64,000 bases of DNA. Origin: Escherichia phage vB_EcoM_SA21RB. Shown here one piece after another: positions 2,189 to 32,630 of the stretch (positions are counted from its first letter, which is position 1; each line of letters opens with the position of its first letter). The stretch lies in the sequence record OL960580. One strand, given 5' to 3'. Both the position numbers and the translations under genes were made by a program. The notes under the pieces are model-generated. The model ran no database searches, had not been told where the DNA came from, and saw nothing but the letters and a program-made list of their open reading frames with translations.

Positions 2189-3204
2189 TGTGTTGCCTCT
2201 ACATATAACTGATTTGCATATTGAATAAGTGCTTCGCGGTCAGAATCAGTGATGTCTGGAATTGCATTAATGTATTCTTCCATCAACGTCTGAAGAGATT
2301 GAACTTCAACTTCTTCACTATCATCTGACTCGACAGAGTTATCAATCTTTGACACAACTCGTAATGAATGCACAACTTTTTCTAGTTCAGATTCGAACTT
2401 CGTCAGATTTTTGTCTACCTCAGTTACTATAACACGTACTGATAGATTTGTAAAATCTTTATAGTCAATTTTTCCCTTAAATGGATATTGAATTCGACGA
2501 TGCCAGGTAGTGTTGTTTGGAATAAATTCCATTCGTTCTGTTTCTGTATCAAACACCCAGAACCCACGAGGGTCATTCTCGTCACCTGCAGTTAGTGTCC
2601 ATGGTGTCCCAATATATCTGACGTTAGCAGCCTCAGAGATAGTATGGAAGTGACCAGACCACACCTCTTTATAAGTCTTAAGGAAATCAGGTTCAAGACC
2701 GTGAGATTTCATTCCTTTATAAAAATAAAATCCATTCAGTTCCCAGTGACCAACACAAAAAGAAGCAGATGAAGTTTTGATGTGTTCAAGAATTTCACCA
2801 GTATTTTCTTCGCACATCCAAGGAATTAAATCAATCAAACATCCGTCAAAATCTACTGTAGTAGGCTTATCATATACTTTAACATTAGGATATTTAGCCA
2901 AAAGCTCAGTAGAAGCATTTGGAGTTAAAGTATTTTTAAAGTGCATATCATGGTTTCCTACAACAGTATGCAGGGTAATACCAGCATCATCAAGCATTTG
3001 AACTATTTCACGGGCGAACTCCATAGTTTTATGCGTGATTGCTTTTCGCACATCAAAAATATCGCCGTATTGAATCCATGTAGTAATTCCATTTTTCTTA
3101 GAATATTCTATTGCTTGTTTAATTCCATCCAACTGAATGGATTGAATCCACTCATCATCGGCTTTAACACCTAAATGCCAATCACCTAAATTTAAAATTT
3201 TCAT
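2185..3204 (-). CDS. 47: recombination endonuclease subunit gp47 (SbcD/Mre11-like phosphoesterase)
   Basis: 339 aa; N-terminal MKILNLGDWHLG and GDIFD/GNHD calcineurin-like phosphoesterase motifs; immediately upstream of gp46. Confidence 0.92.
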   Translation of the reverse strand: MKILNLGDWHLGVKADDEWIQSIQLDGIKQAIEYSKKNGITTWIQYGDIFDVRKAITHKTMEFAREIVQMLDDAGITLHTVVGNHDMHFKNTLTPNASTELLAKYPNVKVYDKPTTVDFDGCLIDLIPWMCEENTGEILEHIKTSSASFCVGHWELNGFYFYKGMKSHGLEPDFLKTYKEVWSGHFHTISEAANVRYIGTPWTLTAGDENDPRGFWVFDTETERMEFIPNNTTWHRRIQYPFKGKIDYKDFTNLSVRVIVTEVDKNLTKFESELEKVVHSLRVVSKIDNSVESDDSEEVEVQSLQTLMEEYINAIPDITDSDREALIQYANQLYVEATQ

Positions 3205-17791: not shown

Positions 17792-18199
17792 TCACTCAAT
17801 TTCAATTTTACTAAATACACAGAATATGATTGAACAGACTACATAAGCGCCACACACGGATTGAACTAATACCATCCCAAAGAACCAAACAATATTATCA
17901 AACAGTGTCTGTTTTACGTCGAAAGGACGTAAACTTACAGTAATATTATCACCTTTTTCTATTGAAGAATACATCTCTGGGGAAATATATTCACTAAATC
18001 TATAACCGTCTTTGAGTTCATATACGGCAATAAACGATAAACTAGACCCCTTTCCTTGTGTTCCTGTAATAGTATTAACTACAGTAACATCATAATCTTT
18101 ATAGTGCATATAATCATTAATTGCGTAATAACCATATGCAACTACTACACATAAACAACATATCAATAAATTCAATCTTTTAATTATCAACTGTTTCAT
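17792..18199 (-). CDS. membrane protein (two hydrophobic segments)
   Basis: 135 aa; N-terminal LLICCLCVVVAYGYYAI and C-terminal FFGMVLVQSVCGAYVVCSIIFCVF hydrophobic helices. Confidence 0.5.
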   Translation of the reverse strand: MKQLIIKRLNLLICCLCVVVAYGYYAINDYMHYKDYDVTVVNTITGTQGKGSSLSFIAVYELKDGYRFSEYISPEMYSSIEKGDNITVSLRPFDVKQTLFDNIVWFFGMVLVQSVCGAYVVCSIIFCVFSKIEIE

Positions 18200-24166: not shown

Positions 24167-24553
24167 TTATTCGAGGGAAAGAAGATACTTACTCTGGTAA
24201 AACATCCCAGTAATATCATCTATCGTGCTTTGAATGGCTGGAGGCATTTCTTTATAAATGCTGTTAGATTGGTCTAGTATGCGATCAATCATTTTAATTG
24301 TGTCGGTAGGAAGTTTACTGGCATCTGGAATTGAAGGCGTGTATTTTCTACCAGAATACCCCAAATATTGCTCACCAAATTTATCAATCAAATCTGGCAA
24401 CTCGGAGAAAATAAAATCGTATGCTTTGTGTCTAGCATAACTTTTAGTTTCAAAATGTGCAGAATGAAAATAAGCTTGTGCAGCCATTAATAAACCTAAG
24501 TATTCATCTGCCTTTGAAGGTTTTCCACTTTGTGAAAAGTCGCTGAATTTCAT
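24167..24553 (-). CDS. hypothetical protein
   Basis: 128-aa ORF followed by a hairpin terminator; 4-nt overlap with rI stop. Confidence 0.45.
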
Positions 24554-24843
24554 TCAGTCTCCAATTTAATTTTCATAATTCTAGCGTATGATTGTGCCAT
24601 CTCCGCGCCTCGCTCTATACATTCAAAATCAGAAGAGCACGGGTCATTTTTATAGGTCGTTCTCATAAAACTATAGAATTGTTCAGACGATTCTACACTT
24701 TTATTTTCAAAAAGTGTATAAACGTGCCTAATACCAGATTCCATAAATTTATCAAAATGAGGATCGACATTCGCTTCAATCGATGGAGATAAAACAAATG
24801 ACAATCCTAGCATGGCAAAAAGTGCCGTTGCTTTTAAGGCCAT
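24550..24843 (-). CDS. rI: lysis inhibition regulator RI (periplasmic antiholin)
   Basis: 97 aa; MALKATALFAMLGLSFVLSPSIEA signal-anchor; near-identical to remembered T4 RI. Confidence 0.88.
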   Translation of the reverse strand: MALKATALFAMLGLSFVLSPSIEANVDPHFDKFMESGIRHVYTLFENKSVESSEQFYSFMRTTYKNDPCSSDFECIERGAEMAQSYARIMKIKLETE

Positions 24844-26280: not shown

Positions 26281-26468
26281 TATTCTTCTACATGTTGTTT
26301 ACGACCTTTCTTATCAATAAAGGTATATTCAACGAATGTTCCAATGTAGTCTTTATCTACATCATGTGGACTATTAATTGGACATTTAGTGCGGCAAATG
26401 CGTTCCCATTGACGAATAATTACTGCTTTGTTTTTAGGATCAAACGGATGTGGGTAATGTACTTTCAT
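26256..26468 (-). CDS. hypothetical small protein
   Basis: 70-aa ORF. Confidence 0.4.
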   Translation of the reverse strand: MKVHYPHPFDPKNKAVIIRQWERICRTKCPINSPHDVDKDYIGTFVEYTFIDKKGRKQHVEEYCLKVTWL

Positions 26469-26919
26469 AATCCACCACTATTAAATCAATATCAGGAGTA
26501 AACATGTCGATTAATTTAGAAACCTTATCCCAATCACCGCCAGCAATACCACAACCTATGCGTGGAATGTAAATTACTGGTTTAAACAAAAGGGTTTCTG
26601 CCTGTAGATTTAATTCTATCATGCAGTTTACTAAAGCACCATAATCAAGATTAGGACCTGGTTCGTATTGCGTATACAGGTTATAGCATATACCAAATCC
26701 CGTAGGACTATGTTTAAAAACAATAGACATATCGCCTAATTTATCACGAGAACCGTACTCAGTAGTGGTTTTATCTATTTCTAAAATTTTGGGATAGGCT
26801 CTTGCTAATTGACCCGCTACGCCTGAACCCATAGTATGAAAACAATTGCACCCGTGCGCAATAATATTACCTTGAAGAAATAGGGCGACAATATCGCCCT
26901 TGATATATTTTACAATCAT
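26440..26919 (-). CDS. macro-domain protein (ADP-ribose binding/processing fold)
   Basis: 159 aa; KGDIV...IIAHGCNCFHTMGSGVAGQLA and IGCGIAGGDWDKV match the two glycine-rich macro-domain motifs. Confidence 0.6.
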   Translation of the reverse strand: MIVKYIKGDIVALFLQGNIIAHGCNCFHTMGSGVAGQLARAYPKILEIDKTTTEYGSRDKLGDMSIVFKHSPTGFGICYNLYTQYEPGPNLDYGALVNCMIELNLQAETLLFKPVIYIPRIGCGIAGGDWDKVSKLIDMFTPDIDLIVVDYESTLPTSV

Positions 26920-27257
26920 CTAGTACTCAATCCTCGATTATAAGAATCTACCAAACGGTCAACCATTGAATGACAAGCGGCTTTATCTTTTTCCTCCGCA
27001 ACTGAACATTCTAGGGTATTCCACTTTTTAGCATATCGTTTTAACAATGTATCATTTTTGTATCTGCTTGATTTATCTCTTTCTCCGTCTTTATATGCAT
27101 ATATTAATTTCTGTGCAAATTCAGCTTGGCATGCTTTATTTTTCCCGCAATAATCCGCTGCAGTACGGTTTACATACTCTCTAATTTCAGTATATGATGT
27201 ATCTGCTAACGCAGAAAATGAAATTAATCCTATACATAAAACCAAAATTTTAGTCAT
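26916..27257 (-). CDS. secreted small protein (signal peptide)
   Basis: 113 aa; N-terminal MTKILVLCIGLISFSALA signal peptide, four cysteines. Confidence 0.5.
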   Translation of the reverse strand: MTKILVLCIGLISFSALADTSYTEIREYVNRTAADYCGKNKACQAEFAQKLIYAYKDGERDKSSRYKNDTLLKRYAKKWNTLECSVAEEKDKAACHSMVDRLVDSYNRGLSTR

Positions 27258-27795
27258 TTACTATTTCCAAAAGTTTATTATTTTTAAGGTAATTAGCCTT
27301 TTCTAGGACTTCAGAAGCATATTTAGAACCTGCTTTAACATTCCATCCCGAATTATAAGAGGATATTGCTTTTCTTATATCGCCCTTATGTATATTTAAC
27401 CAATAAGAAAGTTCAATGTACGCCCAGGAAGCTGAATTGGATCGTTTATTCAACATTCTTTTTATTTCAGCATCGGTCATATTATAACCAAGTTCCTTAA
27501 CTCTTGCTCGCATAGTAGGCAAATAATTTTGGAACATTCCATAAGCGTGATGCTTTGGTTTAGATTTTAAATTAACTCCGCCAGAGCTTTCTTGCCATAA
27601 AATAGCAGCCATTATATGACCTAATCCGCTCTTGTGGATATTTTTGTGTGTTTTATATTTTCCATCCTTAGAAAATTGTTCCCCGAATTGATACGCGTAA
27701 CGCATGTTATCGAGTTGGACATTACTGAAAGTATGCTCGGAGCTATGTGCCATCATTGAAATGGCCAATAGACCAGCGAGTAGTGCTTTTCTCAT
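27250..27795 (-). CDS. secreted lytic transglycosylase-like protein (SLT domain)
   Basis: 181 aa; signal peptide MRKALLAGLLAISMMAHS; ILWQESSGG...YGMFQ resembles the SLT catalytic-Glu motif. Confidence 0.55.
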   Translation of the reverse strand: MRKALLAGLLAISMMAHSSEHTFSNVQLDNMRYAYQFGEQFSKDGKYKTHKNIHKSGLGHIMAAILWQESSGGVNLKSKPKHHAYGMFQNYLPTMRARVKELGYNMTDAEIKRMLNKRSNSASWAYIELSYWLNIHKGDIRKAISSYNSGWNVKAGSKYASEVLEKANYLKNNKLLEIVND

Positions 27796-27802
27796 GCTTA
27801 CC

Positions 27803-28264
27803 TCATTGAGTTTTAATTACTGCTTTAGAAGCCTTTCCTGGTAAACGACGACTGTTAATAATTGCCATCCTGCATTGAAGCGACGGGTCTTTGAACTTCG
27901 CATTAGGTTTACAAACTGTAAATCCAAGCCAAAGATTTCCATCTGTGATTTCTAAACGTCCAGGACGATATTCAACCCCATCAATAAAATCCTCGTCAAT
28001 GTCAGGACGAGGAGGCATACTCAGGAATTCATTAACTTCTAAAACATGGTCTTTTATTTTATGGAATAATTCAAAAACGTATGTCTCATCAATCTCCCGT
28101 TGAATTGCACGATCAAGAAGATGTTGAGAATATTTTAGATGAAACGATGAGACCCCTGCTGCTTTTGATGCCTCACGAATCTCATTGTTAATTTGACGAA
28201 ACTCCGACTCAAAGTGACGACGAAGCTTATTTCGACGGATAAAAACTTCTGTGTTGATAGTCAT
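27803..28264 (-). CDS. regB: endoribonuclease RegB
   Basis: 153 aa; sequence MTINTEVFIRRNKLRRHFESEF matches T4 RegB; early promoter directly upstream. Confidence 0.88.
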   Translation of the reverse strand: MTINTEVFIRRNKLRRHFESEFRQINNEIREASKAAGVSSFHLKYSQHLLDRAIQREIDETYVFELFHKIKDHVLEVNEFLSMPPRPDIDEDFIDGVEYRPGRLEITDGNLWLGFTVCKPNAKFKDPSLQCRMAIINSRRLPGKASKAVIKTQ

Positions 28265-28287: not shown

Positions 28288-28322
28288 AAAAATTATACCA
28301 CAGTCAAGAGGAAAAGTAAACA
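28288..28322 (-). promoter_or_regulatory. T4 early promoter for regB
   Basis: minus strand GTTTAC ... TGGTATAAT, 25-60 nt upstream of regB. Confidence 0.65.
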
Positions 28323-28323
28323 G

Positions 28324-28602
28324 TTATTCTTTAAATCTAATCAATTTATTCATAGACTTTGAAACTTCTGCACGAACCTCATGTAGATTTTTGAGCTGTT
28401 CAAGGCGCTGCGTATAGTAAGCAATTTCATCTTCTTCGAGACAGTCCTGTGAATCTTCTTTAAGATAACGTGCATAGTCCTGGAAAGCGTTACGGATTAC
28501 TTCCTGGAAATCATCAAGACTTTGAATTTTCTTAGGAGCAGCAGATACACGACGAGGGGCAGTATAATACTCATAACCAAACCCTGCACTTAATTGAGCC
28601 AT
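28324..28602 (-). CDS. hypothetical protein
   Basis: 92 aa from internal Met [10 protein letters not shown] (track ORF starts 14 codons earlier). Confidence 0.4.
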
Positions 28603-28868
28603 TAATATTTTTCCTCTGGTTGGAACATTGCACGACAAGCCCACATACTGGCTTCTTTGAGTTTCGTTTTAGCAATAGTTAACTGATCGAGGCTTTCAGC
28701 ATAATTCTTCGCGAGTTCATCATCTTCACAGCTATCGAATGCTTCCCAGAATTCATCATATAAAGCATCAAAGATAAGTCCTAAACGAACTTCAGCGTCT
28801 TTGATAGCATTCACTTTACCGATTTTCTCTTCAGTATGCGGCTTATAACCTTTAATGTCTTCAATCAT
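28602..28868 (-). CDS. hypothetical protein (at the remembered position of T4 vs.4/Acb2)
   Basis: 88 aa from MIEDIKGYK; second ORF upstream of regB, where I recall T4 vs.4; sequence identity not verified. Confidence 0.4.
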
Positions 28869-29082
28869 ATTTGACTTCCTCACCAGTACATAAATCATAT
28901 TCAACTAAACGAATAGGTTCATGAATGCCATATCCCTGAACAGAAATTTCTGTCGTAGGATAAATTCCATCAATATCACCCATATTCCACGCTTCGTTAA
29001 ATTGCTGTTCGCCTGAATTACTAAACCACTCGGCGAAAGCATTTAGCACATCTTTAGAACCTTCAATAATTATCTTTGCCAT
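28861..29082 (-). CDS. hypothetical small acidic protein
   Basis: 73-aa ORF. Confidence 0.4.
   Translation of the reverse strand: MAKIIIEGSKDVLNAFAEWFSNSGEQQFNEAWNMGDIDGIYPTTEISVQGYGIHEPIRLVEYDLCTGEEVKYD

Positions 29083-31662: not shown

Positions 31663-32630
<968 letters not shown>

Follow-up and report, generated by a model that had tools for sequence, protein, structure and literature searches.

The family-1 GH23 lytic transglycosylases, such as Slt70, MltD and Neisseria LtgA, have a lysozyme-like helical fold and carry Glu-Ser, G-x-(M/F)-Q and Y-N-x-G motifs. Smaller enzymes of the SLT type, VirB1, P19 of plasmid R1, IpgF, IagB and EtgA, consist of a Sec signal peptide and one SLT domain, about 150-170 residues. 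The VirB1-type small transglycosylases are believed to make local openings in the wall and not to lyse the cell. Small periplasmic proteins that inhibit wall-cleaving enzymes have also been described. Ivy, MliC/PliC and PliG are bacterial periplasmic lysozyme inhibitors, and the bacteriophage T4 protein Spackle, which is small, helical and exported, inhibits the gp5 lysozyme.

Two long-catalogued early genes of T4, vs.1 and vs, have been known since 1986. Classical biochemistry and genetics by Marchin, Neidhardt and colleagues assign a cytoplasmic function to the vs locus: a factor of about 10 kDa reportedly bound to valyl-tRNA synthetase, and vs mutants are reported to plate on valS(ts) relA hosts. 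Mueller and Marchin are likewise said to have obtained a purified factor of about 10 kDa. The similarity of vs.1 to SLT enzymes is already known and is not new here; it appeared in papers of 2003 and 2006 (PMC1524935), and it is also present in GenBank annotations. The literature that we searched held no paper characterising the Vs.1 enzyme family, no activity or phenotype of Vs.1, and nothing on the export of Vs.

The window studied here is a stretch of 64,000 nucleotides from Escherichia phage vB_EcoM_SA21RB (OL960580). Its source is a T4-type phage (Tequatrovirus), and the DNA is 99% identical to Tequatrovirus genomes. A sequence-only reading of the window had proposed that two adjacent open reading frames encode secreted proteins, one of them a lytic transglycosylase. 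Both frames were found at exactly the coordinates given, on the minus strand, and they are the vs.1-vs pair. The features of the locus are as follows.

27250..27795, minus strand: gene vs.1, encoding 181 aa; putative GH23/SLT-type peptidoglycan glycosidase, predicted to be exported
26916..27257, minus strand: gene vs, encoding 113 aa; database name 'valyl-tRNA synthetase modifier'; predicted from its sequence to be an exported four-helix protein, with four Cys that are invariant
27250..27257, minus strand: 8 nt shared by the stop of vs.1 and the start of vs, ATGACTAA
27801..27804, minus strand: Shine-Dalgarno-like GAGG, 5 nt ahead of the vs.1 ATG; the stop codon of regB overlaps it
28292..28320, minus strand: promoter-like site of the sigma-70 type in front of regB, TTTACT-17-TATAAT, with TG upstream

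We consider it probable that Vs.1 is an exported GH23/SLT enzyme and that Vs is an exported four-helix protein, likely periplasmic. The vs.1 product is 100% identical to T4 Vs.1 (AF158101; 'ORF 61.4' of X04567; UniProt P13311, Y06E_BPT4) and matches phrog_600 over residues 1-178 (E 2e-68). The two are one gene in sister phages, and the function of the T4 protein is likewise a predicted one. The vs product is 99% identical to T4 Vs (UniProt P13310, VS_BPT4) over aligned columns, or 97.4% by tblastn when an indel of 2 aa is counted. It matches phrog_1256 (E 5e-40), and its homologues carry Pfam PF26829, 'ValRS_modifier'. The gene agrees with that of T4 in position and length class, and the family name implies a cytoplasmic role, unlike the features of the sequence. 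The gene order is tk - tk.x - tk.4 - vs - vs.1 - regB - vs.3 and onward, with regB directly upstream of vs.1, and vs.1 is placed between regB and vs as it is in T4. The lysis-inhibition gene rI had been described as nearby, and it does lie at 24550-24843, with its start at 24843(-), about 2 kb from the pair.

That the pair is early, as had been supposed, agrees with its position in the early unit behind regB and with published T4 transcriptomics, in which both vs.1 and vs are classed as early RNA. Published T4 mass-spectrometry proteomics detected both Vs.1 and Vs; their intensities are similar and increase over time. The promoter-like site ahead of regB matches the consensus at 10/12 positions, the best in the region as a pattern match only, and it is likely to be the early promoter for regB-vs.1-vs-tk.4. 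The pair is taken to be transcribed early along with regB. In X04567, a potential rRNA binding site is annotated at the position that corresponds to the GAGG sequence. Because the vs.1 stop and the vs start overlap by 8 nt, the arrangement suggests that the two genes are translationally coupled. The gene vs directly follows vs.1 in 9/9 loci examined, from at least six genera and two unclassified metagenomic contigs, with junctions that range from -8 to +7 nt.

Three short motifs define the putative active site of Vs.1.

27577..27603, minus strand: motif I, ILWQESSGG, residues 65-73; holds the predicted catalytic Glu69
27529..27543, minus strand: motif II, YGMFQ, residues 85-89; G-x-F-Q equivalent of the family-1 lytic transglycosylase GLMQ
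27346..27360, minus strand: motif III, SYNSG; AYNxG equivalent

The first two of these had been recognised from the letters of the DNA and were located at those residues of the 181-aa protein. The SLT-type assignment made at the same time is supported by a Pfam SLT match, conserved motifs and GH23 fold matches. The match to Pfam SLT (PF01464) passes marginally, scoring 25.1 bits where at least 21.3 are required (E 1.4e-5, residues 61-154), and NCBIfam contained no family for either Vs.1 or Vs. The Glu69 codon occupies 27589-27591 and reads TTC on the plus strand and GAA on the coding strand. Residues E69-S70 are invariant in a 35-sequence alignment. Loss of the catalytic glutamate among homologues, named beforehand as a point against the enzyme, did not occur: E-[ST] is present in 77/77 cluster representatives, and E-S is kept in homologues from Krischvirus, Biquartavirus, Slopekvirus, Kuttervirus and Felixounavirus. 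In an hhalign comparison that is weak (E 0.09), E69 pairs with the Glu of the RQES motif in E. coli Slt70, which we take to be the catalytic Glu478 in mature numbering. Motif II has G86, F88 and Q89 invariant in the 35 sequences and is aligned to the GLMQ of Slt70; motif III has Y147, N148 and G150 invariant. Each is found in 76/77 representatives. Y159 is also invariant in the 35 sequences, and no second acidic residue between E69 and G86 is.

The AF2 model of Vs.1 has a pLDDT of 88.8. When it was compared with the PDB by Foldseek, the top 25 matches were all GH23 enzymes (probability 0.6-1.0, and about 1.0 for the best), among them MltD, a GH23 chitinase, LtgA, Slt, Slt70, phi6 P5 and T7 gp16, although the similarity is modest (TM about 0.45-0.52, E about 1e-2). 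Vs.1 has the lysozyme-like helical fold and the three motifs in common with the family-1 GH23 enzymes, and an extracytoplasmic location is predicted for it, but the identity is only about 15%. It forms one small domain and lacks the superhelical, LysM and lipid-anchor modules found in cellular GH23 enzymes. Together, alignment and model support the assignment of Vs.1 as an SLT/GH23-type domain with a conserved catalytic Glu.

Both proteins begin with a segment that resembles a Sec signal peptide, by eye and by rule.

27742..27795, minus strand: Vs.1 predicted Sec signal peptide, residues 1-18, MRKALLAGLLAISMMAHS, cleavage AHS↓S
27204..27257, minus strand: Vs predicted Sec signal peptide, residues 1-18, MTKILVLCIGLISFSALA, cleavage ALA↓D
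Predicted mature N-terminal peptides: SEHTFSNVQLDNMR for Vs.1, from Ser19, and DTSYTEIR for Vs, from Asp19

The N terminus of Vs.1 reads MRK-ALLAGLLAISMMA-HS↓SE and that of Vs reads MTK-ILVLCIGLISFSALA↓DT. The rule was a crude, home-made one that asks for a basic n-region, then 8-16 hydrophobic residues, then small residues at -3 and -1. It was passed by 4/88 of the open reading frames of at least 80 aa in the window, namely Vs.1, Vs, rI and one membrane-like frame; rI is presumably exported, as described in the T4 literature. The signal-peptide-like N termini noted by the sequence-only reading are conserved under this rule, in 35/35 aligned Vs.1 homologues plus 4 more distant ones and in 36/37 homologues of Vs. 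By this rule, the other point named beforehand against the proposal, absence of a predicted signal peptide, did not arise either. The single Vs homologue that fails has no basic residue ahead of its hydrophobic stretch; its start has probably been called too far downstream. Two distant relatives of Vs (P0118 and MIZ3) retain the signal peptide together with the four cysteines, and in a third (P0119) a lipoprotein box, LSGC, replaces the signal peptide and the four cysteines are kept.

The signal segment of Vs.1 is less conserved by column than the mature part (0.52 versus 0.70), and the N terminus of Vs is also less conserved than its mature part. In the AF2 models, the pLDDT of Vs.1 is about 54 at residues 1-20 and above 90 in the domain, and residues 1-19 of Vs have values of 47-52 and form no packed helix. 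The 2-aa indel relative to T4 Vs lies within the Vs signal segment, so that Vs is 2 residues shorter here. From these sequence features, export of both proteins from the cytoplasm by the Sec pathway is inferred. Two other readings of the Vs N terminus were rejected. The Vs of the window is not a lipoprotein, since LVLC has Leu at -1 and hence is no lipobox, and a shorter cytoplasmic isoform from an internal ATG does not fit, as there is no Met before M98.

In the mechanism that we propose, the Vs.1 precursor of 20.7 kDa would be exported by Sec and cut after Ser18 to give a basic periplasmic GH23/SLT enzyme of 18.8 kDa. Glu69, as the only catalytic acid, would split the MurNAc-GlcNAc bond in peptidoglycan. 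A lytic transglycosylase reaction, which leaves 1,6-anhydroMurNAc ends, is the most likely one, because a conserved second acidic residue is not evident; GH23 also includes hydrolytic goose-type lysozymes and a chitinase, and transglycosylase chemistry is therefore not established for Vs.1. Its role may be a limited or local remodelling of the cell wall once infection begins. The roles put forward by the sequence-only reading, remodelling of the wall where the phage infects or an influence on lysis inhibition, are speculative. Vs.1 is not the main lysis enzyme, because the endolysin is encoded by a separate gene, e, as the earlier reading had it, with its start at 32156(-). T4 e-minus mutants do not lyse, and therefore Vs.1 alone cannot dissolve the wall. 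Vs.1 shares the architecture of VirB1, P19, IpgF, IagB and EtgA, but no envelope-spanning machine is encoded beside vs.1, and a local wall-opening role by analogy with them is a conjecture.

Vs.1 might instead be a hydrolytic muramidase resembling goose-type lysozyme, or a late auxiliary lysis enzyme beside endolysin e. A PDB search with the Vs.1 family profile gave goose-type lysozyme as its sole match (E 0.33), aligned at the motif III region, the fold matches include the GH23 chitinase and muramidases, and some GenBank records name Vs.1 homologues 'lysin' or 'C-type lysozyme family'. The T4 Vs.1 protein also builds up across the middle and late time points. The RNA, however, is early, and the gene lies in the regB early unit, away from holin and endolysin. 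The motifs E-S, G-x-(M/F)-Q and Y-N-x-G agree with the family-1 lytic transglycosylases, the invariant second acid is lacking between E69 and G86, and e-minus phage fail to lyse even though they carry vs.1. We regard this alternative as unlikely. Less probable again, and doubtful at best, is an enzyme of the signal-anchor-release (SAR) type, whose N terminus would stay uncleaved and hold it to the membrane, inactive, until the membrane depolarises. The hydrophobic stretch of Vs.1 (ALLAGLLAISMMA) has many Ala, Gly, Ser and Met residues and recalls SAR anchors, but its uncharged part is only about 13 residues long and runs into a small-x-small cleavage motif, which in T4 reads AHS↓S and has counterparts in all homologues. 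Longer anchors have been described for P1 Lyz and phage 21 R, and the stretch in Vs.1 falls short of the uncleaved, weakly hydrophobic transmembrane segment of about 20 residues that marks SAR endolysins. AF2 also leaves the N-terminal segment unpacked against the domain. An early, exported wall-remodelling transglycosylase is the reading of Vs.1 that we prefer.

The second protein of the pair had been described as secreted, with four cysteines. The first point stands as to a signal-peptide-like N terminus, but the annotation as valyl-tRNA synthetase modifier implies a cytoplasmic role; the second is correct for the mature part (C37, C43, C84 and C95), whereas the total is five, with C8 in the signal peptide. 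The four mature cysteines are invariant in 37 sequences. The AF2 model of Vs (pLDDT 86.2) has helices at residues 20-37, 41-61, 68-84 and 89-110. No known structural relative was found for this four-helix fold, no similarity to the fold of a known periplasmic lysozyme inhibitor or of T4 Spackle was found, and a PDB search with the Vs family profile gave nothing meaningful. By prediction, Vs is like Spackle in being a small, exported, Cys-containing helical phage protein, and its gene adjoins that of a wall-cleaving enzyme. Vs would be exported as a four-helix protein of 11.0 kDa (precursor 12.9 kDa), in which two Cys pairs flank the turns between helices 1-2 and 3-4. In the periplasm these pairs might be joined as two stapling disulfides, or the four cysteines could instead bind metal. 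His-tagged Vs made in the cytoplasm was insoluble (PMC8076793), in keeping with export.

The Vs family gave 8 matches among 1.84 billion representative proteins, every placeable one on a T4-like contig, and word-indexed as well as exhaustive profile searches did not detect it beyond T4-like phages. As vs occurs only beside vs.1, the most likely place of action of Vs is the periplasm, where it may act on Vs.1 or jointly with it. Such a location, predicted from sequence, conflicts with the binding of a cytoplasmic synthetase, and the one surprise of the locus is that Vs looks exported, unlike its label. We tentatively suggest that Vs is not, or not only, a valyl-tRNA synthetase modifier, and that it may be an exported, disulfide-stapled periplasmic partner (inhibitor, activator or targeting factor) of the co-translated Vs.1. 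The classical vs phenotype would then arise from another small ORF nearby or indirectly.

It is also possible, if somewhat doubtful, that the label is correct. Vs would then be cytoplasmic and would bind or modify host valyl-tRNA synthetase, its N terminus would be no working export signal or a partly used one, and its adjacency to vs.1 would reflect the tight packing of early genes. T4 early genes do generally overlap or abut whatever their function, as vs and tk.4 do, by 4 nt. The ORF is a valyl-tRNA synthetase modifier in all databases that give it a name (GenBank T4 AF158101, PHROG 1256, Pfam PF26829), and the precursor and mature masses of Vs are both near that of the purified factor of about 10 kDa. 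Other ORFs of about 10 kDa lie close by, however, such as vs.3 (92 aa) and vs.4 (88 aa). The original sequence record (X04567) leaves vs unnamed, as 'ORF 60.9', and the valyl-tRNA synthetase assignment therefore came later. A cytoplasmic Vs also fits poorly with a signal-like N terminus that persists in nearly all close homologues and in distant ones, despite sequence drift and indels, with the invariance of the four cysteines, and with the lipoprotein box of the one distant homologue, which has meaning only outside the cytoplasm. The label, which may be wrong, has been copied to hundreds of phage genomes and often corrupted to 'valyl-tRNA synthetase'. Depending on the answer, either a gene assignment of 50 years' standing would need correction or Vs would prove to follow an unusual route.

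The conserved ORF was found in 2045 phage records for Vs.1 and in 795 for Vs; this conservation and the detection of both T4 proteins by mass spectrometry mark the two frames as real genes and not chance ORFs. Most records with vs.1 are thus without vs, and therefore Vs.1 does not need Vs. The Vs.1 family is confined to phages. A tblastn search of a plasmid collection gave no match for Vs.1 or Vs, and there is therefore no detectable tie to the transglycosylases of conjugation systems. The role of Vs.1 could touch the infection of non-growing cells, superinfection, the timing of lysis or the release of muropeptide signals. Across the 2045 records, T4-like, Vi1-like and FelixO1-like phages all keep this early, apparently exported, predicted wall-cleaving enzyme.

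The two ORFs that the sequence-only reading had taken as a pair of early secreted proteins, one of them a lytic transglycosylase, are present with exactly the boundaries it gave, though both are encoded on the minus strand. The features of the locus and the window genes discussed with it are as follows.

27250–27795, minus strand, vs.1 (181-aa ORF)
26916–27257, minus strand, vs (113-aa ORF)
26440–26919, minus strand, tk.4 (Macro domain, Pfam E 1.3e-7), overlapping the end of vs by 4 nt
27803–28264, regB, flanking gene (Pfam REGB_T4, E 1e-68)
start at 24843, rI
start at 32156, endolysin e

Over 1.9 kb, the region shares 99% identity with Tequatrovirus genomes, and an annotated relative has the gene order rI - rI.1 - tk - tk.x - tk.4 - vs - vs.1 - regB - vs.3 - vs.4. 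The 181-aa protein matches T4 Vs.1, the product of "ORF 61.4" in the 1986 sequence X04567, at 100% identity, and the 113-aa protein is T4 Vs, labelled "valyl-tRNA synthetase modifier". Both genes and the SLT similarity of Vs.1 are already known. The similarity is in print (PMC1524935), in a passage that cites the 2003 T4 genome review, and some GenBank records read "transglycosylase SLT domain-containing protein". Experimental work on Vs.1 was not found in the literature searched. Annotation has also drifted: several Kuttervirus, Aeromonas-phage and UniRef entries call Vs.1 homologues "endoribonuclease", "RegB" or "site-specific RNA endonuclease", and many phage genomes call Vs "valyl-tRNA synthetase", i.e. 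the enzyme itself.

The motifs quoted for the 181-aa protein were located at residues 65–73 (ILWQESSGG) and 85–89 (YGMFQ), with the codon for Glu69 at 27589–27591. Vs.1 narrowly passes the Pfam SLT threshold (25.1 bits against 21.3). Across 35 aligned cluster representatives, reaching down to 40% identity, residues E69, G86, F88, Q89, Y147, N148, G150 and Y159 are invariant, and the E-[ST] motif occurs in 77/77 representatives, so that the predicted catalytic glutamate is kept in these homologues. All three motifs are found in 75 of the 77, and they persist in remoter homologues from Krischvirus, Biquartavirus, Slopekvirus, Kuttervirus and Felixounavirus. Relatives of Vs.1 occur in 2045 phage records; none were found in plasmids. 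Alignment with hhalign pairs "ILWQESSGG...YGMFQ" with "IARQESAWN...SGLMQ" of Escherichia coli Slt70, at a weak score (E 0.09), which places E69 on the glutamate of the Slt70 RQES motif, the catalytic Glu478 (mature numbering). The AlphaFold2 model of Vs.1 is confident (pLDDT 88.8), and the PDB structures that match it best all belong to GH23 enzymes, namely MltD, a GH23 chitinase, LtgA, Slt, Slt70, phi6 P5 and T7 gp16, with a probability of 0.6–1.0 and a TM score of about 0.5.

Export was assessed with a crude rule: the n-region must be basic, there must be a hydrophobic stretch of 8–22 uncharged residues, and positions -3 and -1 must carry small residues. Vs.1 and Vs, for which signal peptides had been proposed, pass this rule, as do 35/35 Vs.1 homologues, 36/37 Vs homologues and all remote homologues checked. 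In the one Vs homologue that fails, no basic residue precedes the hydrophobic stretch, probably as a result of a truncated start call. Among the 88 ORFs of 80 aa or more in the window, the rule selects only 4, namely Vs, Vs.1, rI and a membrane-like ORF, which is probably a small membrane protein.

17792–18199, minus strand, 135-aa ORF that passes the export rule, with hydrophobic N- and C-terminal segments

Conservation in both proteins is 0.50–0.52 over the N-terminal 18 residues versus 0.70 in the mature parts. T4 Vs has 115 aa (2039–2386 in the compared T4 locus, L007), and its main difference from the 113-aa Vs is a two-residue indel in the N-terminal hydrophobic segment (SFSASASA|D in T4, SFSALA|D in the window). 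The indel falls in the c-region of the predicted signal peptide (27204–27257, minus strand), as would be expected of a segment under merely loose constraint. One remote Vs homologue carries a lipoprotein box, LSGC. The predicted mature proteins are 18.8 kDa with a pI of 9.65 for Vs.1, and 11.0 kDa with a pI of 8.87 for Vs. Cytoplasmically made Vs with an N-terminal His tag was insoluble (PMC8076793), as an export substrate might be, though this is no proof of export. Overall, we consider export of Vs fairly probable. In two distant T4-like contigs (L008, 778–1185; L011, 2356–2796), the genes that directly follow vs or vs.1 also encode proteins with signal-peptide-like or lipoprotein-like N termini, which hints at a small group of early genes with exported products.

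The most likely reading of Vs.1 is a single-domain GH23 enzyme, exported by the Sec pathway, that cuts the glycan strands of peptidoglycan with Glu69 as the catalytic acid, probably by lytic-transglycosylase chemistry. Vs.1 is produced from early mRNA and is a different protein from endolysin e and the tail lysozyme. T4 without e is not known to lyse. By analogy with small specialized transglycosylases, we favor a limited, local remodeling of the wall rather than a role in lysis. The roles put forward in the sequence-only reading, at the infection site or in lysis inhibition, are speculative. Overall, the observation behind the sequence-only reading is confirmed, and its interpretation holds in part only. 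What remains of interest is an enzyme that is widespread yet uncharacterized, and a Vs label at odds with the Vs sequence.

The Vs family (Pfam PF26829, PHROG 1256) is very narrow, with 39 clusters in a word-indexed search and 8 matches among 1.84 billion representatives in an exhaustive profile search; all members that could be placed belong to T4-like phages. In 9/9 loci inspected, which represent at least six genera and two unclassified metagenomic contigs, vs directly follows vs.1, the junction ranging from -8 to +7 nt. Because vs.1 is far commoner than vs, it is independent of vs. Vs had been described as having four cysteines; there are five, one in the hydrophobic N terminus and four beyond it. 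All 37 sequences compared keep these four (C37, C43, C84 and C95), which are also retained, with slightly different spacing, in the remotest members. AlphaFold2 predicts four helices (residues 20–37, 41–61, 68–84 and 89–110) with pLDDT >90, and residues 1–19 are unstructured (pLDDT about 50). In the model the cysteine pairs flank the turns between helices 1 and 2 and helices 3 and 4, which would fit two stapling disulfides; a metal site is a possible alternative.

A periplasmic Vs could not bind the cytoplasmic synthetase in vivo. The classical studies (Neidhardt, Marchin, McClain, Mueller, Comer) reportedly described a phage factor of roughly 10 kDa in complex with valyl-tRNA synthetase, as well as mutants in vs that show an in vivo phenotype. 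The ORF is unnamed in X04567, the grounds for the later assignment of vs to it were not found in the literature searched, and further ORFs of roughly 10 kDa lie within 1.5 kb. The assignment may be imperfect, export may be partial, or the export prediction may be mistaken. That Vs is a periplasmic partner of Vs.1 and the synthetase label misplaced is a tentative reading, which we consider rather doubtful.

The vs.1 and vs genes overlap by 8 nt, and a GAGG lies 5 nt ahead of the vs.1 start. The best promoter-like site of the region, by consensus match alone, is at 28320–28292, ahead of regB. In T4, vs and vs.1 have early RNA and "middle" protein in the published classification, and mass spectrometry detected both proteins, with intensities that are similar, rather low and increasing with time (PMC9697503). 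Just 3' of the vs stop, within the first tk.4 codons, lies a G+C-rich hairpin, AGGGCGATATTGTCGCCCT (26882–26900), which is terminator-like by score on both strands and may serve in RNA stability or attenuation. RefSeq records name tk.4 "phosphatase". Farther along, a vs.4 homologue (2800–3081 in a relative's locus, L009; about 28602–28904, minus strand, in the window) bears the Pfam domain Acb2_Tad1_hairpin, the family of the published anti-CBASS cyclic-nucleotide sponge Acb2, so the early region mixes anti-defense and host-takeover genes.
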